64,000 nucleotides of DNA from the NCBI GenBank assembly GCA_963779495.1, contig CAVZYM010000005.1, positions 528,241 to 592,240 of the forward strand, given 5' to 3'. The position numbers and the translations under genes were made by a program. Of this stretch, positions 8,982 through 35,307 are shown one piece after another. The notes beneath the pieces were generated by a model. It was not told where the DNA came from and searched no databases. It worked only from the letters and a program-made list of their open reading frames with translations. Position 1 is the stretch's first letter, and each line of letters starts with the position of its first letter. Source of the stretch: an uncultured Pseudomonadota bacterium (GTDB taxonomy: Bacteria > Myxococcota_A > Polyangia > Fen-1088).

Positions 8982-8991
8982 GCGATCGTGG

Positions 8992-13257: not shown

Positions 13258-15062
13258 CTAGCGCCGGCGGTCCTTCTTGGCGACGGGCACCAACGCGATG
13301 TCGATCTTGGTCTCCGCTTCCCTGAGGTAGAGGGACTTGGTCCAGCGCTGGTAGCCGGGCAGTGACGCCTCGACGCGGACGGTTTCGAAGCGCATCAGGG
13401 CGACCTTGCGCGGCCGCGGGCCGATGGACCCTATCGGCCCGCCGTTCAGCTTGATCGTCGCGTGCGGCGGCGATGAGGTCACGAGCGCGGTCGCCCGCGG
13501 CCGCGCGAGCCGCTCGGTGACGATCGCGCTCTCGCCCGGCTTCGCGGTGATCGACCGGGTCACGTCCTGGTAGCGATCGTGTCTGACGGTCACGGCAGCG
13601 GCCCCGCAGGGAACGGAGGCGTGCGCGATCGGGCTGACGCCGAGCGCGAGCTCTCCCCACGACACCGTCGCCCCGGCCGGCGTGGTCGTCACCCGGGCCA
13701 CGCACCCTCCGGCGGCGCGAGCGCTGGGTGCCTCCGCCGGCGCGAGCTCGGGCGGAGCGACGGGCGCCGGCACTGCGACCGCCTGCACCGCGACGGCCGG
13801 CGCCGCGACCGCGGGCGCCGCGACGGGTGCGGGTTTCGCCCCCGACCGGAGCACCAGGCCCAGGAGCAGCCCACCCAGCGCGCAGGCCGCGAAGGGCGCC
13901 GCGCGACGGGCGATGCGCAGCGCGCGCGCGCGACGGTCTACCGGTTTGAGGATCGTCGCGGGACGGGGCGCGGCGGCCGGCGGCGGCGTCACGGGCTCGT
14001 CCACGACCACGTCTTCACCGGGGGCGTTGATGCCCGCCGCCGACGACCCGCCGTCGGTCTCGAGCAGCTGCAGCTCGATGAAGCTCGCCAGGTCCGCGCC
14101 GTCGAGATCGCTGAGCGGGTTCGCCGGCAGCGTGAAAGCGGCGCCGGGAACCCGCGCTTCCGGCTGCGTCGCCGGAGAGACCAGCGTCGGCTCCAGCTCC
14201 GGGGCAACCGGCGGAGGAACGACCACCGCCGGGGCCGGCGCCGCCGCGAATGGCATCGGGACGCCGATCATGGTCGCCGTCACCCTTGGCGCCAGCTTCG
14301 TCGCCCCGCTGGCCGCCACGTTGGGGGGCGCCGGCACGCTCTGCCGCGCCGCTGTCGACAGCGACATCACGTTGCCCATCGACGGACGTGGAGCCGCGAT
14401 CGGGGGCGCGGGCACGACGGCGGTCGGCCGCGCCACGCCCGGCGGCAAGGTGACGGGGGGCGGCACGGTCGCTGACGGCGGAACGATCGCGGGCGGCGGC
14501 ACGGTCGCGGGCGGCGGCACGGTCGCCGGCGGCGGCACGGTCGCGGGCGGCCGTGCGCTCGCGAGCGGCGGCACGGTCGCGGGCGGAGATCGGACCAGCG
14601 ACAGAGCCGGCGCGGTGACTTTGCGCGGGGGCGCGCTCTCAGCGGGCGGGCGCGGGGGCGGCGTGCGCTCGGACGGCGGGCGCGTCGCCTTGGCCGCGGA
14701 CGCCCCCCGCTCGAGCAGGCGAAGATGAATGCCGCGGCTGCGCGCGTCCATGTCGAGGAGCCGCAAGCGCATCAGCGCGCGCGACGGCCCACCGGGCGGA
14801 CCGGTCACCGGGGTCACCTCGCTGACCTCGCACCGGCCCGACATGATCACCGCCTGATCCTTCAAGCGGATCGTGAACCGCCCGGCGGTGCCGACCCCCG
14901 CGTTCGGAACCGCCGGCACCACGACATCGGTCTCCGTCGTGAAGCGGGCAAACCGCTCCACGAACTCGTCCGCCGAGGCACACTTCGTGGCCAGTTGGAT
15001 GACGGCCCCGTCAGCCCCCACCACGCATAAATCGGCGCCTCGACCACACCGATAAAGACCCA
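13258..15062 (-). CDS. Membrane protein with Pro-rich (PPATVPP)n linker, one TM helix and two C-terminal PEGA domains; N-terminal cytoplasmic domain possibly PilZ-like
   Basis: PEGA-like blocks (ATVSWGELALGVSP...TVRHDRYQD; ATIKLNGGPIGS...ASLPGYQRWTKSLYL). TM helix FAACALGGLLLGLVL. 15-nt tandem DNA repeats (ggcggcggcacggtcgc x4, ~14470..14540) encode PPATV. Start trimmed because the upstream gene ends at 15090. Confidence 0.6.
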
Positions 15063-15089
15063 CATCGCCCGCCACCCAACCGATCGGGA

Positions 15090-16196
15090 TCAGTCTGGCA
15101 ATCGGCCGGCCGCGAAGGCCGCTTCGATGTCGTCCCAGCGGTGAATGAAGTCGAACGCCTCCGATGACTCGCGGGGCAGGTGGCCCAGATACGCGAAGCG
15201 TTTGGTCGGAGGTAGTCCAGCTATCGACATCCTTGCGCCGGACGCGATCGGTTTGAGCCGCGGGAGATCCTTTGCCGTGGGCACGTCGCTCCGAGACCAC
15301 TCGAGGATTTCGACGGTCAGGTAAGGAACGGTGACATCACCCTCACGGAGCGTGCTGATCCCGCATATCGCCAGAGGCACGTAGCGTCCGGAGTCGCGTT
15401 TGAAGGCGACGACATCGCCAACCCACCAGCCCAATCCGTACATCGTGGGAAACAGCTCATCCGCCCCGAGCCACGAGCTTCCAATGACCTTGCGGTCGTC
15501 ATCGAGCACCGCGGGGACGGGCAAAACACCGAGACGCCGCAGGCGTGCCCTGGGGTACTGCCCCGGGCCATAGACCCCGAACGCGACCTGCGGATGTTCG
15601 CGAAACGTCGGTTCGATTTTCGCGGTTTTGAATCGCTTGATCGTCCGGCGCGACGGAACATCGGCCAGCTCGGCAACCGGTGGCACGGAATCGCTCACGA
15701 AATCAAATACCCGGACGCTGGGTGCGAGGCTGGCACCGGCGTTCTTGCACATGCCGCAAACCTGGAAGAAGGCGAAGCGACCATCCAGCAGCCGCCAGGC
15801 GTAGACCTCGCCCACCTTCATCGGTGTGACTGCGGCCCGCGGAACCTTCATCGGAACGGGCGGTGGCGGCTCCCGTTCCAGCTGGGCGCGGAGCTTGAGC
15901 AGAACCACCGCACGCGCCCGCTGATCCTTGGCGCTGGCCTCTGTCCAGCGTTTGAGGTCGGTTCCGTCCGAAACTATCCTCAAAGCCTGAGCGCGAACCC
16001 GGGGAACGATCCGGCCGCTGCGCCACTGCAGATCCGCCAGCACGAGTGTGACGACTGGGTCGTCCGAACCGTAGTCGTTGACGAAGCTCTCCGTCAGATC
16101 TTCGGCCGTGCGGCCCCAGCGCAGGCCCGTGTTCCAGTCCGAACGAATGTCACACGCGGTGTCGTCGGAATAGAGCCCGGTGCCCCAGGTTCCCAT
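15090..16196 (-). CDS. DUF4259 domain-containing protein
   Basis: N-terminus MGTWGTGLYSDDTACDIRSDW matches the DUF4259 signature (MGxWGTGxFDND). No other recognisable domains. Confidence 0.6.
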   Translation of the reverse strand: MGTWGTGLYSDDTACDIRSDWNTGLRWGRTAEDLTESFVNDYGSDDPVVTLVLADLQWRSGRIVPRVRAQALRIVSDGTDLKRWTEASAKDQRARAVVLLKLRAQLEREPPPPVPMKVPRAAVTPMKVGEVYAWRLLDGRFAFFQVCGMCKNAGASLAPSVRVFDFVSDSVPPVAELADVPSRRTIKRFKTAKIEPTFREHPQVAFGVYGPGQYPRARLRRLGVLPVPAVLDDDRKVIGSSWLGADELFPTMYGLGWWVGDVVAFKRDSGRYVPLAICGISTLREGDVTVPYLTVEILEWSRSDVPTAKDLPRLKPIASGARMSIAGLPPTKRFAYLGHLPRESSEAFDFIHRWDDIEAAFAAGRLPD

Positions 16197-17355: not shown

Positions 17356-18756
17356 CTAGAGCGTGTAGAGGAAGGCGACGAGGTCGCGCTTCTCCGCCTC
17401 CGTGAGGCGGGTCTCCATCACCAGGTTGAAGAACTCGACGGTGTCGTCGAGCGTGAGGAGTCGCCCGTCGTGCAGGTAGGGGGGCGAGTCCTTGATGCCG
17501 CGGAGCGGGAAGGTCTTGATCGGCCCGTCGGCGGTCGCGGTCATGCCGTTGATGTTGACCGGCTTGTAGAAACGCTCGGCGCGCAGGTTGTGCATCAGGT
17601 TGTCGGTGTAATAAGGGGGCGCGTGGCAGACGCCGCACTTGGCCTTGCCGAAGAACAGCGCCTCTCCGCGCATCTCTGGCTCTGCAGCGCGCTTCGGGTG
17701 CAGGCGGCCGTCGACGGTCAGCTTGGGCGCGGGCGGAAAGTCGAGCAGCTCCTGCAGCTCCGCCATGAAGTGGACCTGGCTGCCGCGCTCGAGGATGTTG
17801 ACGCCCTTCTTGGTGGCGATCACCGGATCGCCGTCGAAGTAGGCGGCGCGCTGCTCGAATTCGGTGAAGTCCTCGACGCTCTTCAGCGCGCGCTGCGAGC
17901 CGAACAGGCGCTGGATGTTCACGCCGCGCAGGCTCGGGGTATCGATCCGGTGGCGGAACGCCTGGGGGCGGGTATCGCCCGCCAGGTGGGTGGCGCCGTT
18001 GGTGTGGCCGTTGGCGTGGCAATCGAAGCAGGTGACGCCGCGGTGGGGCAGCGTCGAGCGCCGGTCCTCGGTGACGTTGAACTGCTGCTGCGGAAACGGC
18101 GTGAGCAGCAGCCGGAACCCCTCCAGCTGCTTCGGGTTCAAGAGCCCGTCGAACAGCGCAAAGAAGTTCATCAGCGTCACCAGCTGGCCGCGCGACACGT
18201 CGCCGAGGTCGGGGCGCGTGGTCAGGAAGATCGGCGGCGGAAACTCGGGCAGGAATGGATCGGGGATGTCGAAGTCGAGATCGAAGCGGGTCAGGTCCCG
18301 CCCCTCCTGCTTCTTGATCTCCTTGATGTGGAATTCGGGGAACAGCATCCCCCCCGCGGGATGGTTGGGATGGGGGAGCGGGTAGAAACCGGCGGGGAAG
18401 AGGTTCTTGTCGCGGATCTCCTCCGGGGTCATCGCCGCGAGCGAATCCCAGGTCACCCCTTTGGGAAGGCGCGCGCGCACGCCGGCCTGAACCGCCTTGC
18501 CCCGGAACATCTTGACCGCCTTGGCGGGACGGTTGGCAAGGTCGTAACGCTCGGCCAGCAAGGCATGCTGCCGCTTCATGATCGCCGCCTTCTCGGCGGT
18601 CAGTCGTTTGTGGAGGGTGGCGAAGTCCTCCGTCGGGACGACCGGCATGTAGCTGGTGGGCGGTGGCTTCTTCTCGTCCGAACGGGCAACGCCGGCGAGC
18701 AGCACCGTCGCGACGGACAACGAAGCAGCGACAACCAGCGCGCGCGTGAAGGTCAT
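17356..18756 (-). CDS. Di-heme cytochrome c peroxidase (CCP/MauG family)
   Basis: Signal peptide and two CxxCH heme motifs (CFDCHANGH; CGVCHAPPYY). ~465 aa. Confidence 0.85.
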   Translation of the reverse strand: MTFTRALVVAASLSVATVLLAGVARSDEKKPPPTSYMPVVPTEDFATLHKRLTAEKAAIMKRQHALLAERYDLANRPAKAVKMFRGKAVQAGVRARLPKGVTWDSLAAMTPEEIRDKNLFPAGFYPLPHPNHPAGGMLFPEFHIKEIKKQEGRDLTRFDLDFDIPDPFLPEFPPPIFLTTRPDLGDVSRGQLVTLMNFFALFDGLLNPKQLEGFRLLLTPFPQQQFNVTEDRRSTLPHRGVTCFDCHANGHTNGATHLAGDTRPQAFRHRIDTPSLRGVNIQRLFGSQRALKSVEDFTEFEQRAAYFDGDPVIATKKGVNILERGSQVHFMAELQELLDFPPAPKLTVDGRLHPKRAAEPEMRGEALFFGKAKCGVCHAPPYYTDNLMHNLRAERFYKPVNINGMTATADGPIKTFPLRGIKDSPPYLHDGRLLTLDDTVEFFNLVMETRLTEAEKRDLVAFLYTL

Positions 18757-18930
18757 GGTCCGGCCTTAGATGAGGTCGGACGTCCGCCGGTCAAGACGGG
18801 GACTCCCCTGGCCGGCAGGGGAAGCCAGGGCGATGCAATAAGGGCCTTCACGGGGAGCCGATGCGGCCCTCGTTTAGCGGCGATTGCCCGCTGACAGCGG
18901 CTGAACTTCCCCGGAACCGGGGAGCTCCGA

Positions 18931-19005
18931 GCGTATGTTCACAATTTATTGCGCTCGTTCACGATAATAGGCAGATTGTTCATACATGACCACAGTTGTT
19001 CACGA
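18931..19005 (+). promoter_or_regulatory. Phased array of four TGTTCA(C/T) direct repeats (18937, 18957, 18978, 18998; ~20.5-bp spacing) spanning the ietA-like start codon
   Basis: Read from sequence in the AT-rich 225-bp region upstream of 18986. GTTCACGAT 9-mer occurs twice. Two-helical-turn spacing suggests a transcription-factor operator array. Confidence 0.5.
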
Positions 19006-20134
19006 TCAGCTGCCACATGTTCTTGAACTCCTGAAAATAGTCGAAGGAGCGGTGAACGCAGATCGGGAAAAGGTCACTTCTTACACGGAGTTACTTGTCT
19101 CCAAGCTCGCTGCCGAGGGTCACAAGAACGTCGCCGATCGTCTTCAACGAGCCCTGCAGAGCTCTAAGACGAAGATGCTTGAACTCAGCCGACCGGGAAC
19201 CCGAGTTCCGGTCGACCAAGAGTCGCGCCTGGCTCTGGCGGATGAAGAACTCGTCCGACCAGGGGACGCGGTTGTCTTTGTATCTCCGGACGTCACAGCG
19301 TCGATCAGCGAATTCATTCGGTTCGTGGTCGCGTCCGATCGCCTCATCAGCCACGGCGTCGGCGTGTCGCCATCGATGCTTCTCTATGGCCCACCGGGCT
19401 GTGGAAAGACCGAACTGGCAAAGTACGTTGCGTCGCAACTGGGGTTGCCCCTGCTTACGGCACGATCCGATTCGCTAATCTCGTCGTTCCTGGGCAGCAC
19501 TGCCAAGAACCTCCGAGTCCTCTTCGAGCACGCGATGGCTCGCCCATGCGTTCTATTCCTCGACGAGTTCGACGCTCTCGCGAAGGCGCGCGATGACAAG
19601 AACGAACTCGGGGAGTTGAAGCGCGTTGTCGTCAGCCTTCTGCAGAACATCGACGCACTTGCATCAAAGACCGTGCTGCTAGCTGCAACCAACCACGACC
19701 ATCTACTGGACCCTGCGATCTGGCGCAGGTTCGCTTTCCGCCTAGAGATCGGCCTTCCAGAGCTTCAAGCAAGACGCGCCATGTTTCAACGCTTCTGCGG
19801 TGATCTAGCTGCAGGAAGCGAGGAGGACCTCGACCTATTCGCAGGCATTTCTGCGACGCTGAGCGGAGCTGACATTAAACAGGTCGCGGAAGACAGCAAA
19901 CGGAGTGCGATCCTGTCAGACAGGAATCGCATCGACACCGCCGAGGTCGTACGCCGCATTCTGCGTTACCGATTGCCCGACCTCGAGAAGGAGTTGGTCC
20001 CGCTGGAAGTGAAGGTAGCGGCTGCAAGGCGCTTGGACCCTGCTCTTTTGACCTACCGGCGCCTGTCAGAGGTATTCGGCATTTCTCTGGGACGTCTCTC
20101 CAAGCTTCTGCGAGAAGAGGTGGCGAATGGCTGA
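18986..20134 (+). CDS. AAA+ ATPase (IetA-like defence ATPase)
   Basis: Walker A GPPGCGKTELAK, Walker B VLFLDEFDAL, sensor-1 LLAATNHD, Arg finger WRRF. Low GC (~50-55%). Stop overlaps the start of the downstream subtilase by 8 nt (ATGGCTGA). Confidence 0.85.
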   Translation: MTTVVHDQLPHVLELLKIVEGAVNADREKVTSYTELLVSKLAAEGHKNVADRLQRALQSSKTKMLELSRPGTRVPVDQESRLALADEELVRPGDAVVFVSPDVTASISEFIRFVVASDRLISHGVGVSPSMLLYGPPGCGKTELAKYVASQLGLPLLTARSDSLISSFLGSTAKNLRVLFEHAMARPCVLFLDEFDALAKARDDKNELGELKRVVVSLLQNIDALASKTVLLAATNHDHLLDPAIWRRFAFRLEIGLPELQARRAMFQRFCGDLAAGSEEDLDLFAGISATLSGADIKQVAEDSKRSAILSDRNRIDTAEVVRRILRYRLPDLEKELVPLEVKVAAARRLDPALLTYRRLSEVFGISLGRLSKLLREEVANG

Positions 20135-22394
20135 GACAGAGCGCCGATTGCCAATCAAAGTCGTTCTAAACAGAGACGGAGATTGGTTCAGCCCGGACGG
20201 TGGCGGCGGTGGTCGCAAGATGTTCGGCGAGGTAACGCCCGACGTTCGGAGGAGTCTCTCTGAGCAATTGGCCAGCACCGCGAGGATTCTTCACATCGAC
20301 GAGACGGCACTACCCGCAGTCGGCCGGGTTGTCCTAAAACGTGACGCCCTCGCAAAGTCTCATCGGCCTGCAAAACTGTTTCGCGACACCTGTCCGATCA
20401 TCGGCGTCGGCCACCTCGGCGAGTTGTTTATCAGCCTGCGCCCCGGTCGGATTGAAGAGCTCATCAAGAGGATAGACGCCGACACCACCAAGGATGGTCA
20501 GGCAGATATCTCAACGATCGAGCAGATCCTTCCGCATGATCCGAACATCGCTACGGCGCCCGAGACCGTCGAAGAGTTGGCCGCTCGCGTAGACCGCTCG
20601 AGTGCCGCTCTCAAGGTCAAGCTGTTTCGGCATAACGACCCCAGTCTCGACAAGAGGATCCAGAACGCCTTCCTCGCCGAGCTCAGAACGCTCGACTTGG
20701 CTCCGCCCGAACCTATCGAGTACGCGAAGACACTGCGCATCTATCGCATCAGAAAGCCAACCGGCGAGGCCGTGCGGAGACTCGCACGCTTTGTAGGCTC
20801 CCAGAGCGTTTCGACATTCCCCATCTATAGATCGGTTAGGACGTCCGCTACTCGCGTACGGGCAGCGGAGGTGTCCGACTTCCCGAGTCCCGACCCCAGG
20901 CGAGACTACCCCGTGGTGGGACTCATCGACAGCGGAGTGAACGCTGGGGACGCTCTTCTTGCTCCTTGGATCGTGGCTCACGATGTCAACGTTCATCCTT
21001 CCGAGCAGGACCTTGAACATGGCAGCTTCGTCGCTGGTCTGTTGGTACATGGTCGGTTGCTGAATCAGAACGATCCGACTTTTCCCGACGGCCCCTGCAA
21101 GATCGTAGACGTCGTTGCTGTTCCGAAAGGGGGCATCTCGGAGGACCAGCTACTAACGATCATCGAAGACGCCGTCCCGAAGTATCCAAAGGCACGGGTC
21201 TGGAATCTCTCTGTGAACAGCATCGGTGGGTTGTGTCTAAATGACGCCTTCTCAGACTTCGCGGTAGCGCTCGACGAGATCCAGGCGAAATACGGCGTGC
21301 GGTTCGTGGTATCGGCAGGCAACTACGTGACGCCACCTCTGCGGGGTTGGCCAGCCGAGGACCTAGGCGAGGCTGATCGGATTTGCGCGCCGGCCGATTC
21401 CGTCCATGCGATCACCGTCGGCTCGATAGCCCATATCCATCGCCCAAATTCCAGAGTGAAGGCTGGTGAACCCTCTCCTTTCTCCCGTCGTGGTCCGGGC
21501 CCGGTTTATCTTCCCAAACCCGACCTTTCTCACTATGGCGGTAACTGCGACGCGGCACTCGGCTGCGTGCAGACAGGCGTGCTCTCCCTCGATGCCAATG
21601 GGGACGTGGCGGAAAGCATCGGGACAAGTTTTGCGACACCGCTCGTCACGTCGCTTTATGCCCACGTCCACGCTGAACTCACGGGGAAAGAGCCCCCGTC
21701 ACCAAGTCTGGTGAAGGCCCTGCTGATTCATTCAGCCTTGCTGTCGAAAGGCGCCCTGTCAGCAGTGGACATGAAGTACCGCGGTTTTGGGGTTCCCGGG
21801 GGGGTGCTGGAAGTCCTGTCGTGCACCAAGTCTGTGGCCACGCTGATCTTCGAACCGGACCTAATTTCAGGACTCGAATTCGAGAAGCTAGGCTTCCCCA
21901 TTCCCACCAGCCTCAGAGACAAGAACGGGAAAGTTCGGGGAGAGTTCGCCATCACGCTCGTGTACGACCCTCCATGCGACGCCTTGGGTGGGGCGGAGTA
22001 CTGCCGCTCGAACGTCGAGGTCTCGCTTGGCAGCTACGATGTGGGGACAGACGGCAAGCGACACCACAAGCGCCAAGTCCCTCCAGAGCCGGAAGATGTG
22101 AACAAGTTGTTCGAGCACGAGCTCCTCGAGCACGGGTTCAAATGGTCTCCAGTGAAGGTCTACCGCCGCTCGATCAGGCGCGGAATCCGCGGCGATACGT
22201 GGAGGCTCCATGTTTCGCTCCAGCATCGAAGCGGCTTTCAGACGCAGATTCCTCAGCGAATGGCGCTCATCGTGACGCTCGCCGACCCCAACGGGACAGC
22301 GCCTGTGTACGACGAAATCGTTACCCAGATGCATGCCAGCGGTTGGCTGACCCAAGATCTACAGGTCAAGAACAGAGTCCGGCTAGGAGTCTAG
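20127..22394 (+). CDS. Subtilisin-like serine peptidase, S8 family (IetS-like) with ~280-aa N-terminal region of unknown function
   Basis: Catalytic triad motifs in canonical order: VVGLIDSGV (Asp), HGSFVAGLL (His), SAGNY (oxyanion Asn), GTSFATPLV (Ser). 755 aa. Translationally coupled to the ATPase. Confidence 0.85.
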   Translation: MAETERRLPIKVVLNRDGDWFSPDGGGGGRKMFGEVTPDVRRSLSEQLASTARILHIDETALPAVGRVVLKRDALAKSHRPAKLFRDTCPIIGVGHLGELFISLRPGRIEELIKRIDADTTKDGQADISTIEQILPHDPNIATAPETVEELAARVDRSSAALKVKLFRHNDPSLDKRIQNAFLAELRTLDLAPPEPIEYAKTLRIYRIRKPTGEAVRRLARFVGSQSVSTFPIYRSVRTSATRVRAAEVSDFPSPDPRRDYPVVGLIDSGVNAGDALLAPWIVAHDVNVHPSEQDLEHGSFVAGLLVHGRLLNQNDPTFPDGPCKIVDVVAVPKGGISEDQLLTIIEDAVPKYPKARVWNLSVNSIGGLCLNDAFSDFAVALDEIQAKYGVRFVVSAGNYVTPPLRGWPAEDLGEADRICAPADSVHAITVGSIAHIHRPNSRVKAGEPSPFSRRGPGPVYLPKPDLSHYGGNCDAALGCVQTGVLSLDANGDVAESIGTSFATPLVTSLYAHVHAELTGKEPPSPSLVKALLIHSALLSKGALSAVDMKYRGFGVPGGVLEVLSCTKSVATLIFEPDLISGLEFEKLGFPIPTSLRDKNGKVRGEFAITLVYDPPCDALGGAEYCRSNVEVSLGSYDVGTDGKRHHKRQVPPEPEDVNKLFEHELLEHGFKWSPVKVYRRSIRRGIRGDTWRLHVSLQHRSGFQTQIPQRMALIVTLADPNGTAPVYDEIVTQMHASGWLTQDLQVKNRVRLGV

Positions 22395-22540
22395 TCTGAC
22401 GGGCGACACCGACGAAGGAGCGTCAGTTCTCATGGATTGCCGACGTCCCACAGGCCACAGTGCCTCGGTCGAAGCGTTGAGGGTCGTCGGCTAAGACCCG
22501 AAGAAGCCCGTTCAATGGCTCGAACTGGCGGGGAGACGAT

Positions 22541-24091
22541 ATGACGACGGAGGCGACAGACATTCACCGGCTGAACTCTGAGCAGATCCGTCTGTACCAG
22601 ATAATGGAAACCGATCCGGTGCGAGCCTTGACGGAGGCGAAGGGGCTTCATGACGACGGCCCGGGCGGTATGTGGACGCAGCTGAGGGGATGTGTCCTCG
22701 CAGAAGCCGGAGGCGCATCGAATGACAAGAGGCCTATCGAAGAAGCAATCGCGATATTCCGGGCGGCCTTGGCGAGAAAGCCCGACGATCCCATGGTCGC
22801 GTACAACTTGGCGAATGCGCTCGGAACACTTGCCAGATTGGACAAGACGGACCTTCCCAAGCGTTACCTGCAGACCTCAGCGTTGAGGCTGGAGAGTCGG
22901 GCCCTCTATGGTTCAGCCGCGAAGGCTCTCCGGAAGAAGCACGCACGGACTGCTACGCAATGCCTAACGAACGTAGGAAGCGCGCTCGACTACGCATTTC
23001 GTTGGATCGAGGCGTTCGAAGCCTACACCGACGCGCTGGCAGTCTACCCAGAGAATGGCGTTGCGTCGGGCGCTGCTGCCCAGGTGCTTTTCAGAGTGTC
23101 GCAAACAGGCCGGCAGCGCGGCTCAGAACATCTGCGCGCTGCGGCGCTGCGCCTGGCCTGGCACTCGCAACAGAATGTCGACACGGTAAGGGCGTTCGCA
23201 GGCGAAGGCGCCGTTCAAGCATTCCTTCGCTTGCCGAGCCGAGCAACAACACCACCACGCCCAATCAAAGCAGGGCTTTCAACGTACCAGCGTTTCGTTT
23301 CGCACCATCGGCTCGCGCTCTCGCCCGTGGTCGAGGGGCTGAAGTCTTTGCGCCGATGGGATGACATCCAAGTGACCGGCATACATGCGCACGGTAACGA
23401 AGGTCCCCATATGCCGCCATTGTTCGCGATGTTCAACCTGTTGAAAGGGGATTACTTGCTTGCGCGGGAACTACTATTCGAGGGCGTCCAGGAGAAACAT
23501 CGGGATACGGGCTGGTACGCCGACACGCTCGACTATGCTCTTTATGGCAGGAAGACATCTTGCCTTGTTCTCGCGCAGCGTTCGGCACTTGACTTGCTCG
23601 ATCGAATCGCTGTTGCGCTGAACGACTACCTGGACGTTGGCGTTTCACCGAATGACGTCCACTTCGTGCGCTTCTGGTTCGAGCCAAAGGCATCCAATTG
23701 GCGTAAGCCGATCTATGACGAAATCGATGCAGGGAATCCCGCCCTCATCGCCCTAGCGGAGATCGCTTCCGACCTCGGAAGCGTCGCGGTTGGCGAAGCC
23801 AAAGCTATTCCCTTGCTTTACCGACACCGTCATCTACGGAATTCGGGAACTCACCGCTTCACAACGCTTCACGATGTCGAGATCGGCGCCCATCGCCCCT
23901 CGCCCGCAATCGAGCACATGCGGCTGGATGACTTTCAACAGGCGGCCATCGATACACTGAAACTCGCCAGAGCAGCACTCTTCTATCTGGTCGAGGCAGT
24001 CGACTATCGTGAACTCCGTCTGGGGCACAGCGCGGGGGTGATGGGATCGCTACCCGTCGTGGGTCATCACCGCATTCGGGGACGCCGATAG
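22541..24091 (+). CDS. TPR-like repeat protein with C-terminal domain carrying an R-x4-H (HEPN-like) motif; function unknown
   Basis: N-terminal ~230 aa helical TPR-like repeats (AIAIFRAALARKPDDPMVAYNLANALG...). C-terminal LLYRHRHLRNSGTHRF contains RNSGTH (Rx4H) ~75 aa from the C-terminus in a predicted helical region. Low GC. 147-bp gap after the subtilase. Confidence 0.55.
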   Translation: MTTEATDIHRLNSEQIRLYQIMETDPVRALTEAKGLHDDGPGGMWTQLRGCVLAEAGGASNDKRPIEEAIAIFRAALARKPDDPMVAYNLANALGTLARLDKTDLPKRYLQTSALRLESRALYGSAAKALRKKHARTATQCLTNVGSALDYAFRWIEAFEAYTDALAVYPENGVASGAAAQVLFRVSQTGRQRGSEHLRAAALRLAWHSQQNVDTVRAFAGEGAVQAFLRLPSRATTPPRPIKAGLSTYQRFVSHHRLALSPVVEGLKSLRRWDDIQVTGIHAHGNEGPHMPPLFAMFNLLKGDYLLARELLFEGVQEKHRDTGWYADTLDYALYGRKTSCLVLAQRSALDLLDRIAVALNDYLDVGVSPNDVHFVRFWFEPKASNWRKPIYDEIDAGNPALIALAEIASDLGSVAVGEAKAIPLLYRHRHLRNSGTHRFTTLHDVEIGAHRPSPAIEHMRLDDFQQAAIDTLKLARAALFYLVEAVDYRELRLGHSAGVMGSLPVVGHHRIRGRR

Positions 24092-24140
24092 ACCGATCGA
24101 TGGCGTCATACTGCGCGCTGATCTCGTCGACTTACATATT

Positions 24141-26561
24141 TTGGGCTGGGCAGCACAACGCGATGACCCCCAGAATGGAAGGCACACGATGACTAACGCT
24201 GACAGTCTCCATCTGCCGCTAAACGTCGCGCGTGCGGTCATTCTCGGCGACGTCCAATTTCTCCGATTCGAGCAGTTCGCCAACGATCTCGTTTCAAAGA
24301 TCGAGGGAGATCGGCCGGTACTTTCGACCTCTCTCACCTATGATCGCGGCAGGGACGGAAAGACCATCGGCCCCGGACCCCGTGTCTACATCTGCTCATC
24401 GCTGAACGACATACCCGACGACAAGGCACTAGCCGATATCGACAAGATCGCCGCCTCTAAGGCGCCGGTCCAGCGGATCTATTTCTGCAGCTCCCAGAAA
24501 TTGACAGAGCATGCGGGAGATAGAATCGCTGCCCTCCTGCGAGCCAAGCTTGGTGACGATGTCTCTGTCGAGTTTCTTGGGGCATACCACTTGGCGGACT
24601 TCGCGGTCCGTTTCCCTGAGGTTGCCCACAAGTCCTACTCGGCCGAAATTGCCGACATCGTTCAGGCTTTCAAGCCATCTCACCAAGTAGATGAAGCTTC
24701 GCGCCTTGCGTTGGAACTCGCTCTCTGTACGGTTGGTCACGAGGATTCAGCCGCAATTCGGACAAGCGCATACGTTGCGTCACTGCGGAGCGTCCTCCTC
24801 GATGGAGTCCCGCGCAACGTCGCCGAATGCGCCCGCGATCTGGCCGCGCGGCTCAAGCTTGGGCGCAGTCTGCCGGGCACCGCAGTCAAGCTGTACTTGG
24901 ATACACTGGAGCAACAGCAAGATGTCACGGTTGTCAGCGATCGCTATGGCCTGACGGAAGCTGGTCGAGCCGCCACCGCCGCAGCGACAGGAGCGGCAGC
25001 CGAGGCGCTCATGAGGGGGCGTCGTGAAGTACGAGCTCAGATTGAACTCGAGCTGGGCTTCACTCTTGAGGACGGCCAATTTGCGACGATGTGGCGAACC
25101 CTACAGGACAAGCTTGCCTTGCTCTTCTACTCGCGAGGACGCGAGATGGTCGAAGGGGTAGCTGCTCTGCTGGGACAGAACGCCTCTTCCAGTGGCGCCG
25201 CGGGTGGACCCACGACACCGACGGCTGCCGAAGGGATGCATGGGCCGTTCTTCGCCAGAGCACTCGGTGACGCCGTAGCTGCAACTTGCTCTAGCCAAGA
25301 ACTAGCCGAACAGGTGCAGGTTGCTCTGTCGGATATTTTCTCCGAAGGAACGGGCGCGGCATTCGAGTGGTTGGTCGAAGTGTGTGCCGGCTTCGTGACT
25401 ATCTGCTCGCTCGGTCTTGAGGCTTCTTCGGGTCAAAAGATCCGCGATGCCGTCTCTCGAATCGCGCTCATCTATGATACCGACGTCCTTCTCTCGCTGC
25501 TGGGCGAAGCCGAACCAGATCACGCCGCCGTCGTAGAGATGACCCGACGATGGCGAGAACTCGGCGGCCAACTTCTCCTCGCCGACCCGGTCTTGCGGGA
25601 GACGGCATACCACGCGTGGATTTCCGAGAGAGATTTCAGGGAGGTGGACTCATGGTTGCCCGGATCTGACTTGGATCGATTGCGCTTTATTAAAAACGTC
25701 TTCGTGCGGTCGTTCGCGACACTGATCTCTCGTCAGCGGGCGCGAAGGAACCAGTGGCACACCTATATCTCTCAGTTCCGTGGAAGTTCGGACCACGATG
25801 CTAGGCGCCTGCACGCGCATGTGTCTTCCGAAAGTAAGGCAGGCGCGCTCCCTCGCATTCTCGAACACGAGTCGGGGTGGGAGCGTGATGTTTGGGACGC
25901 GTGTGAAGAACGCGCAGACCGCGGCGCTGCTGGCGACCGAGACCGGAAGATTAAAACCGACAAGGCCAGACGCGATGCAGAGCTCTACGTTTCGATGGTC
26001 CGGTATTCGGAAACCCTCCGGGATACCGAACTTGAGGGTCACTGCTTTCTCGTATCCTCGGCGCACCGCCTTGCGGACCTCGAGGCAGAGTTCCATCCTG
26101 GTGAACGGGCGCGCGTCCTATCGATCGGCGCTGTACTTCACATGTTGGCGTTGGTCCCGGGTGTCTCCGTTGGGTTAACGGCCCTCGGAAGTCTTCTCTT
26201 TGATGGAAGCTTCCACAAAGGCATGTCCGATCTCGGCATGGTTCTTCGCCGCGTCTTGAGGGATTCCGATGGATTCAGCATGCCTTGGGCCAGCCGGACG
26301 ACCCTCGAACGGGACATGCGAGCGCGGCTGGTCGCTCGCGCTGCTGAAGGAGGAGGTACCCACGCGGAGAAGGCCAAAAGAGCCAAAGAGATGGAGCATC
26401 AGGTCGTTAGCGGCGAAAAACCTGAAGCGACCGCGATGCTCATAAGGGAAGCCCTCGACCAAGTCGGCGCTGATACACGGATGGAGCGACAGCTCGCGGA
26501 GGCACATCGGCGCATCGCCGAACTTGAGGCAGCGGCCGCCCGTAAAACCAGAGAGAGCTAG
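24141..26561 (+). CDS. Large (806 aa) uncharacterised protein with a central PIN-like nuclease fold signature
   Basis: Segment SRIALIYDTDVLLSLLGE...LLLADPVLRETAYHAW resembles the PIN strand-1 Asp and the following Glu. No P-loop. Coiled-coil and charged C-terminus. Low GC. 50-bp gap after the TPR gene. Confidence 0.5.
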   Translation: MGWAAQRDDPQNGRHTMTNADSLHLPLNVARAVILGDVQFLRFEQFANDLVSKIEGDRPVLSTSLTYDRGRDGKTIGPGPRVYICSSLNDIPDDKALADIDKIAASKAPVQRIYFCSSQKLTEHAGDRIAALLRAKLGDDVSVEFLGAYHLADFAVRFPEVAHKSYSAEIADIVQAFKPSHQVDEASRLALELALCTVGHEDSAAIRTSAYVASLRSVLLDGVPRNVAECARDLAARLKLGRSLPGTAVKLYLDTLEQQQDVTVVSDRYGLTEAGRAATAAATGAAAEALMRGRREVRAQIELELGFTLEDGQFATMWRTLQDKLALLFYSRGREMVEGVAALLGQNASSSGAAGGPTTPTAAEGMHGPFFARALGDAVAATCSSQELAEQVQVALSDIFSEGTGAAFEWLVEVCAGFVTICSLGLEASSGQKIRDAVSRIALIYDTDVLLSLLGEAEPDHAAVVEMTRRWRELGGQLLLADPVLRETAYHAWISERDFREVDSWLPGSDLDRLRFIKNVFVRSFATLISRQRARRNQWHTYISQFRGSSDHDARRLHAHVSSESKAGALPRILEHESGWERDVWDACEERADRGAAGDRDRKIKTDKARRDAELYVSMVRYSETLRDTELEGHCFLVSSAHRLADLEAEFHPGERARVLSIGAVLHMLALVPGVSVGLTALGSLLFDGSFHKGMSDLGMVLRRVLRDSDGFSMPWASRTTLERDMRARLVARAAEGGGTHAEKAKRAKEMEHQVVSGEKPEATAMLIREALDQVGADTRMERQLAEAHRRIAELEAAAARKTRES

Positions 26562-26714
26562 AGTCTGCGGACAAAGACTTTGGCCCCCGTCAAGTTCGAC
26601 GGTTACCGACGTCCTACGAAATCGCACTCAGGACCGACGGGGTCCATCCGTCGCCACAGTGCCTGCCTTTTCTTCTCCCGAGCCGGTTTGAAACGGGCGG
26701 CTAGACGATCGCGC

Positions 26715-29700
26715 TTACTCGACGCGCGTCGTCTCGTCGATGACGCTGATGAGCTCGTTCGCGGCGCTCCGGATGGGATCGCCCTTGGGGAGGTCCTGGG
26801 CGGCGCGCTTCGCGAACATGATGGCGCGATCGCGCTCCCCTTTGCGGTACGCGATGCGGGCCTGCCGGAGGAAGGCGTCCGGCAGGGTGATGGGGCCGAC
26901 GACGTGGTTGGCGACGATGAGCCGCAGGACCTTCAAGGCGAGGTCGACGTCCCCGGCGGCCTCGGCGCGTTCGACCAGCACGGCCATGATCTCCCCGTTC
27001 TTCTTGTCGGCGTCGACGGCCCGCGCGAGCGCCGCCAGCTCCCCCTTCTGATCGCCGGCCTGCGCGGCGAGGCGCGCCAGGCGCGCGTGGAGCAGCGCGA
27101 GCGCCGGGGAGGCCATGCCCTTGTGGGCGGCGACGAACGGCTTGAGCAGCTCGGCCGCCTCGGCGAGGGAGCCCATGAGGGCGTGGGCGTCCGACGTCAG
27201 CAACGCCGTTTCCTCGTCGCGCGGGCGAATGGCCACGGCCTCGGTGAGGGCCGCGAGGGCCATCGGGCCGTCGCCGAGCTCCAGCGAGAGCCCGCCCGCG
27301 CGGCGGAGCAGCTGGAAGCGCACGGTCTCGTCCTCCGAGCGGCTCGCGGTCTCGTACAGCAGGGCCGCCAGCTTGCGCTGTTCGCCCGCCCCTTCGTAGA
27401 GGTGCCCGAGCAGATCGATCAGCGCCTGCTGGCCGGGGTCGCCGGCGACGAGCTGCTCGATGGCCGCCATCGCGTCGGGGGTCCGATTCGCGCGCCCCGC
27501 CAGCTCGACCAGCCGGTTGGCCGCGGCGACCTGCGCCTCGCCGCTCGTGAGGCGCATCAGGTGGTAGGTCGCGTCGACGGCGCCCGCGACGTCGCCCTCC
27601 GCCTCCGCGAGGTCGGCGGCCAGCTGCATCGTGTCGGCGTCAGGTTCGCTGCTCTCGAGCACGTCTCCGACGAGCTCGCGCGCGGTCACGACGTCGCCCC
27701 GGCGGCGGGCCAGGTCGGCCAGCTCCAGCGTCACGGCGCGCAGCTCGCCAGGCGAGCCGGCCTTCGCGGCCGCCGCGCGCCACAGCTGAAGTGCGCCCGC
27801 CAGCGTCTCGGCGACGGCGTCGGGCGAGAGGTCGTGAACGCCCCGCAGCACGGCGACGGCGGCGCGGTGATCTCCGCGCGCGCTTTCCAGCTCCGCCAGC
27901 AGGAGCGACAGCGACAGCCGCCGCGCCGGATCCGCTGCGGCGGCGCCCGCCGGCCCCGCGAGGGCGGCGGTCACCTCGGCCACGGCGGCGCTGACGTCAC
28001 CCACGGTGACCAGCGCGCGCGCGAGGCGTTCGACGACCTCCGCGTTCTCGGGCGCGCGCGACCGGGCGAGCTGAAGCAGCGTCGTGGCGCCCGCCGGATC
28101 CGCGAGCTCCGTCTGTCGAAGCGTCGCCGCCTCGAGGAGCCAGGCGAGGGCATCCGCCGCGTCCGTCTCACGAACGGCGCGGTCCGCAAGCAGCTCGGCG
28201 AGCAACGACCAGGACTGCCTGGCCCGATAGAGGCGTTCGAGCTCCTGCGCGATCCCAGCGTCGGCGGGCGCCAGCGCGCGCCCCCGTTCGAGCACGCGCC
28301 GGACGGCCGGCGCGTCGCCGAGCTCGGTCCAGATGGCGGCGATCTCGCGGACCAATCCGGCCGCCTCCGGCCCCGTCTCCAGGGCGAGGAGCTCCTCCAT
28401 GCGCTGGGCGTGCTCGGGCGTCGCTTGCTTCCCCTGCCCTTGCAGCGCGAGGAGCTTCCTGAGCAGATCTCCCCGCCCGCGGGCGATGCCCAGCGCCCGC
28501 TCGTAAAGGGCAGCGGCGCGTTCGGGCTCGGCGCCTTCGAGCCGGGCGCCCAGCTGCAGCGCCGCCTCCGCCACCCCGTTCTGATCGCCGGCCTCGCAGG
28601 CCGCCTCGAACATCTGCTCGAGCAGATCGACGATGTCGCCCGACGCGCCGGTGCGCTCGTAATAGCCCGCCAGCAAGGCGAGGGCCTCGGGGTGCCGCCG
28701 CTCCTCGAGCAGCACGTCGCGCAGGATGTCGGCGGCCGCGGCGTCGCGGTCGTCGGCGGCCAGGAGAACGCGGGCGCGAGACAGACGGAGCTGATTGCGC
28801 TGCGCCACGTCGGGCAGCATCGGCAGCGTCTCTCCCACGACGCGCTCCAACCCGACGCGATCCTGCAGGGCGATGTAGTGCTCGAGCAACGGACGCCAGA
28901 TGGTCTCATCGCCCGGCGAGGCCGACCGCAGCCGTTCGAGGAGCGAGGCGCCCAGGCGGTGATTGCTCGCCCGCGCGGCCCGGCCCGCGAGATCGCGCGC
29001 CAGCGCCGTGAAACGCTCGGGCTCGACGACCTCCGTCTCGGCCGCGCGTTCGAGCGCGCGGGCCGCGCCCTCGAGAATCGCCCGCCGCCCGCCGGCGGGC
29101 AATCAGCTCCAGCGAGGCCCAGGCGGCGTCGCGCCGCCCCGTGGGCTCCTTCACCGCGACCTCCGCCAGCCTCAGCAGCAGAGGTTCGACACGCTCGGAC
29201 TCGCCGAGGGCGACGGCCAGGTCCACCGCCTCGCGGGCCTCGGCCACCGTCACCGAAGGCGTCGCGGCGCGACGTTCGAGATAGTCGAGCAACAGGCGCT
29301 CGTCTCCCGACTTGCGCGCAATCCGTTCGTAGAGAGGGAGGACCTTGACCTGCTCTGTCTGCGGCAGGCCGGCGGCCTCCACCAGCGCCGAGGCCCGATC
29401 GAGGTCGGGGCTCTTCTCCAGGGCGGCGGACAGCTTCGCCACGCCGGCGTCGCGCGTGGTCTCGCGCGGAAGCTCGATGGCCGCGGCCCGGTAGAGCGCC
29501 TCCGCCGCGTCGTCGGCCGTCGCCGCCTCGGCCGCCAGCTCCTCCAGCCGCGCGACGATGCGATCGCACTCGGCGTCGTCGCCGCGCTTGCCGGCCAGCC
29601 GGGCCAGGCCCGAGAGGACGACGAACGACCGGGGCTCGACCTCCTCGGCGCGGCGATGGAGCTCCAGCGCGCGCGCGTCATCCTCGAAGTCGCGCTCGGC

Positions 29701-32700
29701 GATCTCGGCGACCCGCAGCAACAGCGCCGCCGCGACGCCCGTTTCGGCCTTGCGGCGCCGCCGTTCGACCAGCGCCAGCAGCCGATCGGCGAGCGCCTCG
29801 GTCTTCCCCGCCTCGCGTCCCAGCGTGAGCAGAGGCTCGTGGAACGGCACGCGCTCGGGCGCGCCTTCGACGGCCAGGAGCTGCGCCTCGAAGGCTTCGG
29901 CCAGACGACCCTGGCCGCGCAAGCTCTCCGCCAGCTCGGCGTGGACGTCGGCCTGCGCAAGCGTCCCGGCGGTCCGGGCGAGGCGCTTTTCGAAAAGGCG
30001 CCCGAGGACGTCGTGGTCACCGCGCGCGAGCAGCCCTTGCTGGAGACGGCGCGCCTCCTCCGGGTCCTCGATGGCCGCCGCCAGGGCAGACTCGAGCAGC
30101 TCGTCGGCCTCGCCGCCGTCGCCGCGCTTGCGTGCCAGGCCAAACAGCCGCAGCAGAATCTCCGTCGCCGCCAAGGCTGTCGGTCCGCCTCCGTCGACCG
30201 CATCGCCCTCCGCCCGCCGCACGAGCAGCGCGCGGTAGGCGCGCTCGGCCTGCGCGACCGCGCCGGCTTCCTCGGCCACCTCGGCGAGCTGACGCAAGAT
30301 CCCCAGGTTCGAACCGTCCATCGACGACGCCAGCTCCAGCTGTTCGAGCGCGAGAGGAAGGTCCCCCTCCGCGCGCGCCAGCTCGCCGAGGCGTTGGTGG
30401 AGCGCGGCGCGCTTGCGGCTCTTGCGCCAGCCGGCCTGCTCGACGAGGGTGAGCAGCTCTTTCCGGGCGTCCACGCGGCGGTCGGACTGGGCCAAGCCGT
30501 CGGCCAACGCCAGGCGCAGCCCCTCGTCGCGCGGCAACAGGCGCACGGTGCGTTCCAGGACGGGGACCGCACGCGCCAGCATCCCCAGGCGGGTGTAGGT
30601 CTCGGCCGCCTCGCGGGCGCGGGTCACAATCAGCGCCTCGTCGTCGGTGTGCTCGCATCCGTCGGCCAGCACGCGGGCCAGCGGCTCCCAGGCCGCCGCC
30701 TCGCGGTAGAGACCGGCCAGGCGCTCGCGCAGGGCGTCGGCCCGCGGCTCGTCCGCCAGCGCGCGCTCCAGGCAAGCGACGGCGCGGTGGCGCTGGCCGG
30801 CCGCGAGATGAGCGGTCGCCAGCGTGCTGGCAATCTCCGCGCGCGCAGACCCTTCGGTCATGGCGAGGCGTCGTTCGAGCCAGCGCGCCGCCGCGGTCGC
30901 CTCGCCGGCGTCCAGGGCCAGGCGCCCCAGCGCGTCGAACGCCTCGGTGGTGGCATCGAGCTCGGCGACCTGCTCCCAGGCCGCCGCGGCCCGGGGCCGA
31001 TCGCCCAGCGTCTTCTCGGCCAGGCGCGCCAGCTCCGACCACAGCGCGGCCGAGGGGGACGGCTGGCCCTCCTCGGCCAGAATCCGCGCCTGCTGCTCGT
31101 AGACACCGGCCAGCTCCGCCGGCTTGCCCTTCCCCAGCAGGACCTCCGCCAGCCGCTGCACGGTCGCGGCGTGCCCTGGCCGTTCGGCGAGGTTCGCGCG
31201 CAGGACGTCGGGGGCGCTGCTCCGCTGCTCGAGCAGCCCGCCCACCCGAACGATCTCGAGCCGCAGCGCCAGCCGGCGTTCACTGCCCGTCGTCGCTTCC
31301 AGCTCGGCCAGCCGCAGGGACGCGGCATCGGCGAAGCGGCGCTCGCTCTCGTAGAGGCGCGCCAAGGCCTCGCGCGCGACGTCGTCGGCCGGCGCCTCCT
31401 CGTGCAGCGAGCGCCAAATCCGGACGGCGCCCGCCACGTCGGCGAGAGGGCCTTCGGTCAGCTCCGCCGCGCGGCGCAGCCAGCCCCGGCGGGTCTCGGT
31501 GGCGGCGGGCAGGCGCGCGCCCTCGAGCAGCAACGCGGTCGCGCGGCGCAGGCGGTCGGGCCCGCCCGCGGCGACGTGCAGACGAACGCTCTCGTCGATC
31601 GCGTGCGTCGCGGCCTCGACGGCCGCGCCCGCGGCGGGTCCGCCCAGGTGCGCCAGGCGCAGGGCGCGCTCGGCGAGACGCCCCAGGAAATCCAGGGCCA
31701 ACCGCTCGTCGGACCTGGCCATCGCCACGCCCGCCGCCTCCCTCAAGAACTCGAGGTCGTTCGGTTGCTCGACCGAGAGCCGCTCGAGCGTTTCGAGCAG
31801 CCCGTCGGCGCCACGCGCGCGCTGAAGCTCGGCACGCTGCCTCAGCGTCGGCACGTGGCCCGGCTCGGCGGAGAGCGCCCGGGCCAGCGCCGCGTCGGCC
31901 GCCGCTGCGTCCTGGCAGTCCATCAGAGTGGCGGCGACGCGCGCGTGAAGCTCGCGGCGCGCGCCCGGTTCCAGGTCGCCCGCCTGATCGACGGCGCGGG
32001 CCAGGGCGGCCGCGGCCGCCGGCAGCTTCCCGGCCTCGCGCGACAGCGACTCGAAGAGGGGAAGCAGCACGGTCTCGCGCGTCGACGGTGACACCGCGGC
32101 GTCGACGATCAGGCCGGCGGCCGCCGTCAGATCGCCCATACGGACGGCGACCCCCAGCAGGCGGCGTCGCGGCCCGAGGCGTTCCGGCGTGATCGCGAGC
32201 GCGGCTTCGTAGCAGGCGCGCGCGCCCACCATGTCGGCCACGTGCTCCTCGAGCAACGTGCCGCGGCGCTCATGAAGGTGGGCGAGCGGCAGCGGCGGTA
32301 GACCGCCGACGTCGATGGCCGCCGCCAGCGCGTCGGCCGCGCGGGCATGGCCGCCCGTCGCCTCGGCCAACCGCAGGACCTCCCGCTCGAGAGCGAGGCT
32401 CCGGCCCGCGAGGGGCAGCGCCTGGCACAACCACTCGAAGGCACGCGCGCGATCGGACGCCCGCTCCTCCGCCAGCGCGGCCGACTCTTCCAGCAGCCGC
32501 GCGCGCGCGTCCGCCGACTGCAGCGCCGCCAGCCGGTGCGGGACCAGATCCAGCAGCAGCTGCCAGGCGTCCGTCCGCTCCGCCGCCCGGTAGAGCGGCT
32601 CTGACGCCAACGGGGCCAGGCTCGCATCGGCCAGCAGGGCCGTCAGGCCTGCCCGCGCGCCCTCGTGGGCGGGCTCGACCTCCAGCGCGCGCCCGTACCA

Positions 32701-34613
32701 CACGATCGCCCCGCGGGCGTCGTCCAGCCGTTCGCGCAGCGTGTCGCCGAGGCGCGCGAGACGGTCGGCGTGCACGCGCCGGTCCACACCCGCGCGCTGC
32801 CCGAGAAGCTCGCCCAGCTCCGCGAAGCGCCCGCTCTCCGCGTACAGACCGACGAGCGCGTCCACGCTCTCCGCGTCCTCGCCGAACCGGGTCGCGATCT
32901 CGCGCCAGGCCTCCACGGCGCACGGCAGGTCCCGCGTCCGGGTGTGGGCCAGGGTCGCGATCTCGACGAGGTCCGCACGCACCTGGTGCGCGCCGGGCGA
33001 GGAGCCGACCCGCCTGCGCAGCAAATCAATCAGCGCCGGCCAGCGTTCGCCCTCGATCAGCAGCGTGCGAATCGCCGCCAGCGCCTCGGCGTCGGCCGGA
33101 TCGACGGCGAGACGGCCCTGCCACGAAGCGATCGCGCGGTCGAGGTCGCCGCGCTCGCGCGCCAGCTTCGCCACCAGCGCCCAGACGATCCGCTTGTCCG
33201 CGGTCTTGGGCTCGAGGGCGGCCAACCGTTCGAGGACGTCCAGCCGCTTCTCCGTCTCGTCCAGCTCGTGGTGGAGCTCCTCCAGCCGGCGCAGCGCCTC
33301 GAGCTTGATCTCCAGGGAAGCGGCAGCTTCGGCCGCCGCCGCGGCGAACAGGGCAGCCGCCTCGGCCTTGTGCCCAAGCTGGCGGTCCTCGACCCGCGCG
33401 GCGCGCATGATCAGCTCGACACGTCGTTCGTCCGCCGCGCACGCGCGCGCCGCGATCGCCAGCCCCCGGGCCAGGCCGGCCCGATCTCCGCTCAGCTCGG
33501 CGAGCTGGCGCAGGCGGTCCTCAATCTCGCGGTCCTCGGGCGCCAGGGCCACCAGGGCGACGTACTGCTCCAGCGCGCCGGCAAGATCGCCCAGGGAGCG
33601 AAGCCGCTCACCGCACTCTCGCCGCAGCGCCTGGTGACGCTCCCCCGTCGAGAAACCGATCGCCACCGCCAGCAGCTCGGGCATGTGCGTCGCGCGCCCG
33701 GCCGCGTCCAGACGGCCGCGAAGCGCGTCCAGCGCGGTCAGGCGCGTCTCGGCCGACCCCCGCTGGTCGACGAAGACCTGTTCCAGCCGCTCGGCGAGGG
33801 CCGCGTCCACCGCGGGCCCGCCCAGCAAGGGGCGGAGCACCGCCAGGGCGTCATCTGGTTGGCCCAGCTCCGTGTGCAGCGTCCCGGCCAGACGCAAGCG
33901 TTGCTCGCGGGCCTCTTCGCCGGTGAGCCCCTCGAGGCGAAGGCGCCAGACGGCGCAGAGCTCGCTCCAGCGCCGATCGCGCTCCAGCAGCCGCTCCAGC
34001 GAGGACGCGACCTGGGCGTCCGTGGGGCGCATGCGGAACAACGTGTCGAGGTACCCGATGGCACGCCCGGGATCGCGCGTGAAGTCCTTCGCGATCCGGG
34101 CCGCCTCCCCCAGCAGCTCGGCGCGCCGTTCGTCCCCCCGCCCGGCCGCGAGGCGGGCATCGTAGCTGTCGAGGACGTCACCCCAGCGCTCGGCCATCGT
34201 CAGCGCGACGACCAGCGGCCGAAAGGCCCAGTCGGAATCGGGCGCCGCCGAGAGCACCGTCCGCAGGACGTCGATCGACTCGGGCGCGTTCTCGCCGAAG
34301 CAGTCCGCCGCGAACCGGGCGGCGCGGCGCGCCAGGATCTCGTGCAGGGGCCTGGGCAGATCTCTCCCCAGCTGGGCCCGATAAAACTCCAGCAGGCCGC
34401 GCGCCTGCGCCTCGTTGGCCGCGACCGTCTCCTCCAGGCGGCTCCAGGGCGCCTCGTTGCCGGGCTGCCGGATCGCGTCGTTCAGCGCCTCGTCGAACGC
34501 CTCGTCGACCACCGTCGCTTGGGCCGCGGCCGGGGCCTGAACCCGCGCCTCGACCTGACCTGACCCCGACCCGCGCAACTCGATCCGACCCGTGGCACGC
34601 TTTGCAGCCATCA
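26715..34613 (-). CDS. Giant (~2,630 aa) TPR/alpha-solenoid repeat protein; single gene split by an apparent frameshift near 29100
   Basis: ORFs 28906..35259 and 26715..29102 overlap in adjacent frames within a GC run (cgccggcgggcggcgggcg). Both are Ala/Leu/Arg/Glu-rich helical repeats with recurring GDxxxA...LxRA TPR-like periodicity. True start is ATGATG at 34613 (GGAG SD), because upstream codons are antisense to a real plus-strand lipoprotein gene. Confidence 0.7.
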
Positions 34614-34705
34614 TTTGCTCCTTGGGGAGCCACGGGAATCGGCCGATCCGGCTCAGTCGTTTAGCCCTATCTGTAGATAGGGTCGGTTCCGCTACACTCG
34701 CGCAC

Positions 34706-35251: not shown

Positions 35252-35307
35252 CGCGACATCCGCGTCAGGCGGCGTTCGGTGACGGCGCGTGCGGGCGCCG
35301 TCGCCGA

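Follow-up and report, generated by a model that had tools for sequence, protein, structure and literature searches.

The window analyzed here, a stretch of 64,000 nucleotides (nt) from contig CAVZYM010000005.1 of an uncultured Pseudomonadota bacterium, contains a block of low guanine-plus-cytosine (GC) content in which two large genes follow an IetAS-like ATPase/protease gene pair. Gene 1 (22541 to 24091, + strand) encodes a protein with tetratricopeptide repeats (TPR) and a HEPN_LA2681 domain, and gene 2 (24189 to 26561, + strand) encodes a 790-residue protein of an unannotated family. The two are likely to be unrelated, self-contained single-gene nuclease cassettes, stacked downstream of IetAS in a small acquired defense island, and their adjacency is best read as defense-island clustering rather than as a functional pair. 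The original prediction, made from the letters of the stretch, had proposed that they form a novel two-gene module in which a TPR-sensor/HEPN RNase has a PIN-like nuclease as its partner. Both large open reading frames (ORFs) are present in the low-GC block beside the ATPase/protease pair, and the motifs quoted for them lie where they were placed, but no two-gene system of the kind claimed exists as a conserved unit. The locus shows how adjacency in a defense island can pass for a system: what lies beside IetAS is two solo genes and no module. From their context, a defense or abortive-infection role of both genes is plausible, and each would act alone.

Genomic distribution of the two gene families

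Evidence on the relation between the two genes comes from the neighborhoods of their relatives. For gene 1 relatives, the survey took in 80 genomic loci, which come from many phyla and include as much as 10 kilobases (kb) per side (54 loci had at least 3 kb on both sides), and for gene 2 relatives 80 metagenomic loci scanned with a 30-sequence alignment (50 had at least 2 kb on at least one side). None of the 80 gene 1 family loci carries IetA, IetS, or a gene 2 relative, and the same holds in the other direction, with IetA, IetS, and TPR-HEPN relatives found at 0 of the 80 gene 2 family loci. Across the 160 loci of both families, in a survey that began from relatives of gene 1 and gene 2 and not from IetAS loci, no relative of IetA or IetS was found within 10 kb. 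Both families lack a conserved neighbor at these loci, where no neighbor family occurs at more than four.

The immediate neighbors of the gene 1 family vary and include integrases, type I restriction–modification genes, AbiEii, DUF4238, SIR2_2, Ymh-type HEPN, IrrE-like peptidases, DUF4917, and DUF2971. Resolvases, integrases, transposases, and P2-type capsid genes are found around gene 2 relatives, together with a few defense genes (a DrmMI-like methylase, mad6/mad8, AbiZ, and AbiEii). Close relatives of the window genes also have different neighbors: in locus L167, the gene before a 78%-identical gene 2 is DUF499-like, and in locus L166, a Mrr_cat/NA-iREase1 gene precedes a gene 1 of 73% identity. 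On viral contigs both families are rare, 2.9 million of these yielding 1 and 2 loci, and tblastn searches of plasmid and phage collections gave no match for gene 2.

Two features of the gene 1 family loci deserve mention in their own right. The gene directly before the TPR-HEPN relative in L166 (2583 to 3596) encodes a 337-residue protein with matches to DUF8426, Mrr_cat, and NA-iREase1, another nuclease-type neighbor, unlike those in the window. In the proteobacterial loci L063, L073, L074, L077, and L084, a gene encoding about 340 to 360 residues (at about 8825 to 9974 in each) has its end a short distance upstream of the TPR-HEPN gene, in the same orientation, and could be a sub-lineage-specific partner. 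DUF4917 is matched by four immediate neighbors of the gene 1 family (best E value 1e-162), which may be among these upstream genes.

The only lineage in which the two families co-occur is that of the window, and there their order is swapped. A related island, recovered from three sequencing runs (L003, positions 1 to 9297; L004; and L005), contains the same four genes as window positions 18937 to 26561 at 76 to 83% nucleotide identity. In the window, and also in an independent contig, the order is IetA, IetS, the HEPN gene, and the 790-residue gene, whereas in L003, L004, and L005 it is IetA, IetS, the 790-residue gene, and the HEPN gene. The points at which nucleotide homology between the islands breaks coincide exactly with gene borders, and the swap is a clean example of cassette shuffling within a defense island.

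Gene 1, a TPR and HEPN_LA2681 protein

Gene 1 begins with an ATG codon, 146 nt downstream of ietS, and is equipped with a GGGGAG ribosome-binding site of its own; its exact 516-residue product is recorded at NCBI (P0009). A TPR region at about residues 61 to 172 (22721 to 23056, + strand) is matched by Pfam TPR_19 (E = 1.7e-5) and by other TPR models. A sequence-profile search of the PDB with a profile of 45 homologs matched consensus TPR proteins, with the best stretch at residues 139 to 178, and matched no solved HEPN structure. Residues 289 to 489 (23405 to 24007, + strand) form a HEPN_LA2681 domain, which covers profile positions 5 to 203 of 204 in Pfam PF18733 (E = 7.2e-44; 150 bits, against a cutoff of 27). 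Within this domain, YRHRHLRNSGTHRF occupies residues 427 to 440 and includes RNSGTH (residues 433 to 438; 23837 to 23854, + strand), the Rx4H signature of HEPN proteins formed by R433 and H438. In the alignment of the 45 gene 1 homologs, whose identity ranges down to 33%, R433, T437, and H438 are invariant. The TPR repeats and the HEPN domain with its Rx4H motif, both named in the original prediction, are thereby confirmed by domain models and by alignment.

Judged by its sequence, gene 1 adds a member to a HEPN family already known and defined computationally. A survey of these domains (Anantharaman et al. 2013, PMC3710099) lists the LA2681 family among the HEPN families, notes a conserved motif, and describes it as "fused to TPR." Gene 1 shares with that family the full domain model, the conserved Rx4H, and the TPR fusion, and shows no structural difference from it. 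Beyond the 2013 survey, we found in the literature no later paper on the LA2681 family, no demonstrated activity or role for it, and no TPR-HEPN system. The statement that the two proteins belong to no recognized system was therefore half right: protein 1 falls in a Pfam family described in 2013, while the family of gene 2 is indeed unannotated. With 78 homologs and 117 genomic matches, the gene 1 family brings an LA2681 HEPN group known only from a computational survey into view as a solo gene in variable defense and mobile-element contexts.

By analogy with other HEPN proteins, the product of gene 1 is probably a TPR-controlled RNase. It would be metal independent, with an Rx4H active site formed on dimerization, and the TPR array would serve as the protein-binding or sensing part. 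For both gene products we infer nuclease activity, together with its substrates and triggers, and an anti-phage or abortive-infection role.

Gene 2, a multidomain protein of an unannotated family

Gene 2 had been described as encoding 806 amino acids, and a + strand ORF of that length does exist, running from a TTG codon at 24141 to 26561. Most likely, however, the gene starts at the ATG at 24189 and encodes 790 residues, the longer form being 16 codons too long, because a GGAAGG Shine-Dalgarno-like sequence lies upstream of this ATG, homology with the related island begins only at 24205, and the 790-residue product is an exact NCBI/ENA protein. Residues are numbered here according to the 790-residue form.

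Gene 2 is without a match among the Pfam, NCBIfam, PADLOC, and PHROG models. An exhaustive HMMER profile search nevertheless recovered 794 cluster representatives (clusters at 50% identity) at E ≤ 1e-3, of which 308 reach E ≤ 1e-30, and most are full length at about 770 to 790 residues. A word-indexed search had returned only 8 relatives, and the notion that the family is very rare was dropped in the face of the roughly 800 representatives; judging its rarity from the word-indexed search alone would mislead badly. The same kind of search with an 87-sequence profile added nothing. A sequence-profile search of the PDB gave non-significant matches only, VapC26 and winged-helix proteins among them. 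As with protein 1, no Walker A motif or P-loop is present in protein 2, in agreement with what had been noted for the latter.

The domains of gene 2 were assigned on an AlphaFold model built from 87 sequences, with a predicted local distance difference test (pLDDT) score of 90.5 and a predicted template modeling (pTM) score of 0.88. This model replaced a first one built from only 8 homologs (pLDDT 72, pTM 0.38), for which Foldseek found no significant PDB match. At the N terminus, about residues 11 to 141 (24219 to 24611, + strand) adopt a predicted restriction-endonuclease-like fold of the PD-(D/E)xK type, similar to Mrr and MspJI. The top Foldseek matches of this domain are MspJI (probability 1.00, E = 0.04) and EcoT38I, these two enzymes having probabilities of 0.96 to 1.00 and E values of only 0.04 to 0.2; Can2 and the N-terminal nuclease of Avs4 are also among the matches. 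E28, D52, K79, and D83 of the domain are present in all 87 sequences, and D56 in 86. A winged helix-turn-helix of the PadR/MarR type follows at about residues 187 to 255 (24747 to 24953, + strand), and a helical linker joins it to a VapC-like PIN domain at about residues 425 to 654 (25461 to 26150, + strand), which harbors a large helical insertion at about residues 480 to 615. In the model, the PIN domain has a three-layer alpha/beta/alpha fold that can be superposed on known PIN nucleases. The protein ends in a helical region (26175 to 26558, + strand) of long charged helices, residues 664 to 790 in the model secondary structure, with 18 K/R and 16 D/E residues between positions 701 and 790; this is possibly an oligomerization or regulatory element.

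The PIN residues pointed out from the sequence alone hold up well. ALIYDTDVLLSLLGE corresponds to residues 426 to 440 and LRETAYHAW to residues 469 to 477. The aspartic acid of the DTD strand is D430, on strand 1, and the glutamic acid of LRETAYHAW is E471, on the helix after strand 2, both at canonical PIN positions. D430, E471, and D596 are found in 87 of 87 sequences and D432 and E442 in 85 of 87, while S623/S624 are always or nearly always S/T. The motifs in the original prediction are far beyond chance; the model returned the expected PIN fold, and the restriction-endonuclease-like domain and the winged helix had been missed. When 62 members of the gene 2 family were scanned against Pfam, the most-matched families were PIN_3 (18 members), HTH_45 (13), PIN (12), and Mrr_cat (7), all with weak matches. 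One relative (P0210) exceeds the Pfam PIN gathering cutoff (24.7 versus 23.6 bits); the window protein itself has no Pfam PIN match at E ≤ 1.

Comparison with characterized groups shows where gene 2 departs from them. In VapC-type PIN toxins (e.g., M. tuberculosis VapC26, PDB 5x3t), the PIN fold is not set within a 790-residue multidomain protein as it is in gene 2, where it also carries the insertion of about 130 residues and has third and fourth acidic positions that cannot be recognized by sequence. No VapB-type antitoxin gene adjoins gene 2: the 97-nt gap upstream of it contains no ORF, and its family is without a conserved neighbor. Like the Mrr/MspJI-type modification-dependent (type IV) restriction enzymes (Mrr_cat, PF04471), gene 2 joins a restriction-endonuclease-like domain to a winged helix, and it keeps the helix-1 glutamic acid and the D-x3-D motif. 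It differs from them in its extra PIN domain and in the replacement of (E/Q)xK, and the similarity stays below threshold (Foldseek E = 0.04, Pfam E ≥ 0.004). The domain order in Mrr is the reverse of that in gene 2.

By analogy with these groups, gene 2 probably encodes a self-restrained, nucleic-acid-binding nuclease. Because no antitoxin gene adjoins, the enzyme would be held inactive within one polypeptide; cleavage of RNA or structured nucleic acid would fall to its PIN domain, and binding or cleavage of DNA to its N-terminal domain. The family is widespread and unannotated, and combines known folds in an arrangement that we did not find described, our literature search having returned no account of a restriction-endonuclease plus PIN architecture. 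A family of about 800 clusters that lacks a Pfam, NCBIfam, PADLOC, or PHROG model thus gains a fold assignment, invariant candidate catalytic residues, and a start codon, and is therefore testable as a single-gene defense or toxin candidate. We suggest, tentatively, that the 790-residue protein may be a widespread, undescribed single-protein immune or conflict system: one polypeptide, under its own control, would unite a PIN RNase with a winged helix and a restriction-endonuclease-like DNA module.

The IetAS island and alternative readings

The two genes lie at the downstream end of an island of about 7.6 kb (18937 to 26561, + strand), delimited by the composition profile and by per-gene GC. 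Its four + strand ORFs (18986 to 20134, 20127 to 22394, 22541 to 24091, and 24141 to 26561) have GC contents of 0.58 to 0.60, compared with 0.74 to 0.75 in the flanking genes; the block at about 18.9 to 26.6 kb averages about 0.59, against about 0.72 for the window overall. Nucleotide homology with L003 starts at window position 18937. The island is small and horizontally acquired. A repeat search gave no convincing flanking direct or inverted repeats at its borders, where no integrase or nearby tRNA was found either, the sole tRNA being at 3014 to 3087. No Rfam family was found within 18000 to 27500, and the 3′ intergenic region folds no better than shuffled sequences (z = −0.95).

The first two genes of the island, which lie outside the claimed pair, encode an IetA-like AAA+ ATPase of 382 residues (18986 to 20134, + strand; PADLOC IetA, E = 3e-132; Pfam AAA, E = 1e-31) and an IetS-like S8 subtilase of 755 residues (20127 to 22394, + strand; PADLOC IetS, E = 6e-255; Pfam Peptidase_S8, E = 3e-25), with an 8-nt overlap between ietA and ietS. 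Judged by the PADLOC matches, they are unambiguous IetA and IetS homologs. Because their NCBIfam scores fall under the equivalog cutoffs (IteA 436 bits, cutoff 510; IteS 734 bits, cutoff 900) though they are far above the PADLOC models, the pair at 18986 to 22394 is a divergent IetAS, in a low-GC island of a GC-rich host. IetAS is reportedly a defense system of Gao et al. 2020. It is a two-gene system, and gene 1 and gene 2, which share the island with these homologs, stand outside it both by homology and by conserved association.

Several observations weigh against reading gene 1 and gene 2 as self-contained nuclease cassettes of a defense island. Neither protein matches any PADLOC model, many neighbors of the gene 2 family are ordinary housekeeping genes, and the link of either family to defense or to nuclease activity is one that we infer. 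In the N-terminal domain of gene 2, the canonical (E/Q)xK strand position is C/A-x-S/T, and the invariant K79 lies eight residues on, in the next helix. The aspartic acid part of the PD-(D/E)xK motif (D52 and D56) is kept and the xK part is lost, and the domain may serve for binding and not as an enzyme. In the PIN domain, the third and fourth canonical acidic positions are unrecognizable by sequence: the position after strand 3 is S-S and not [ST]xD, and D596 is located in the helix that precedes strand 3. In addition, no terminator is predicted in the 97 nt between gene 1 and gene 2, which may be cotranscribed, and both known islands of the lineage retain all four genes, such that a functional link specific to this lineage is conceivable.

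Of the competing readings, the one that fares best, though it is unlikely, is that the genes have no part in defense and serve mobile elements as selfish addiction or maintenance genes, or that gene 2 is a winged-helix regulator built on a degenerate nuclease scaffold. The resolvases, integrases, transposases, and P2-type capsid genes around relatives, the many housekeeping neighbors of gene 2, the lost catalytic positions of its N-terminal domain, and the lack of a PADLOC match all fit such a role. The putative catalytic residues, however, show no variation either in the Rx4H of gene 1 or in the two nuclease-like domains of gene 2, which argues for an enzymatic function; moreover, a mobile-element role sits poorly with the rarity of both families on viral contigs and with the lack of a plasmid or phage match for gene 2, and a recognized defense system adjoins both genes here.

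Less probable again is that, in this lineage, IetAS uses one or both genes as accessories or effectors, for example as nucleases that IetS sets free or activates; an accessory role beside the Iet-like pair had been envisaged. IetAS variants with an essential extra gene do exist: ietHAS contains a SNF2 helicase, and how IetAS acts against phages is stated to be unknown (PMC13069673). That extra gene is a helicase and not a nuclease. The four genes share one low-GC block, and both islands of the lineage retain IetAS with both genes despite the rearrangement. Outside this lineage, however, neither family adjoins IetAS at the 160 loci surveyed, the association is confined to two related islands that may reflect one inherited event, and a gap of 146 nt sets the genes apart from ietS, each of them moving as a cassette of its own. 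In its most specific form, in which one of the two neighboring nucleases owes its activation to the IetS protease, the proposal has at best a slim chance of being correct, and is less likely, and more striking, than a single-protein system encoded by gene 2; if true, IetAS would gain the effector that it has so far lacked.

Least probable of all is an obligate two-gene abortive-infection module of a TPR-sensor/HEPN RNase and a PIN nuclease, for although the two genes are adjacent on the same strand, 97 nt apart with no predicted terminator, and are both retained in the only related island, their order is swapped there, neither survey of 80 loci found the two families together, the close relatives L167 and L166 have different neighbors, and both families (794 cluster representatives for gene 2; 78 homologs for gene 1) typically occur without each other. 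The reading of two independent single-gene nuclease cassettes is the one that we prefer.

Elsewhere in the window, the tRNA at 3014 to 3087 is a tRNA-Ala gene, after which a stretch of somewhat lower GC (0.65 to 0.68) begins. No integrase was found among the ORFs tested; the stretch includes a gene for an AlkZ-like DNA glycosylase (7782 to 8981, + strand; Pfam PF06224, E = 2e-65). A PEGA-domain protein is encoded at 13258 to 15300 and, taken together with large TPR-matching ORFs beyond the island, points to a myxobacterium-like host. Downstream of the island, two very large overlapping ORFs on the − strand (28906 to 35259 and 26715 to 29102; GC about 0.75) encode proteins of 2117 and 795 residues with TPR matches.

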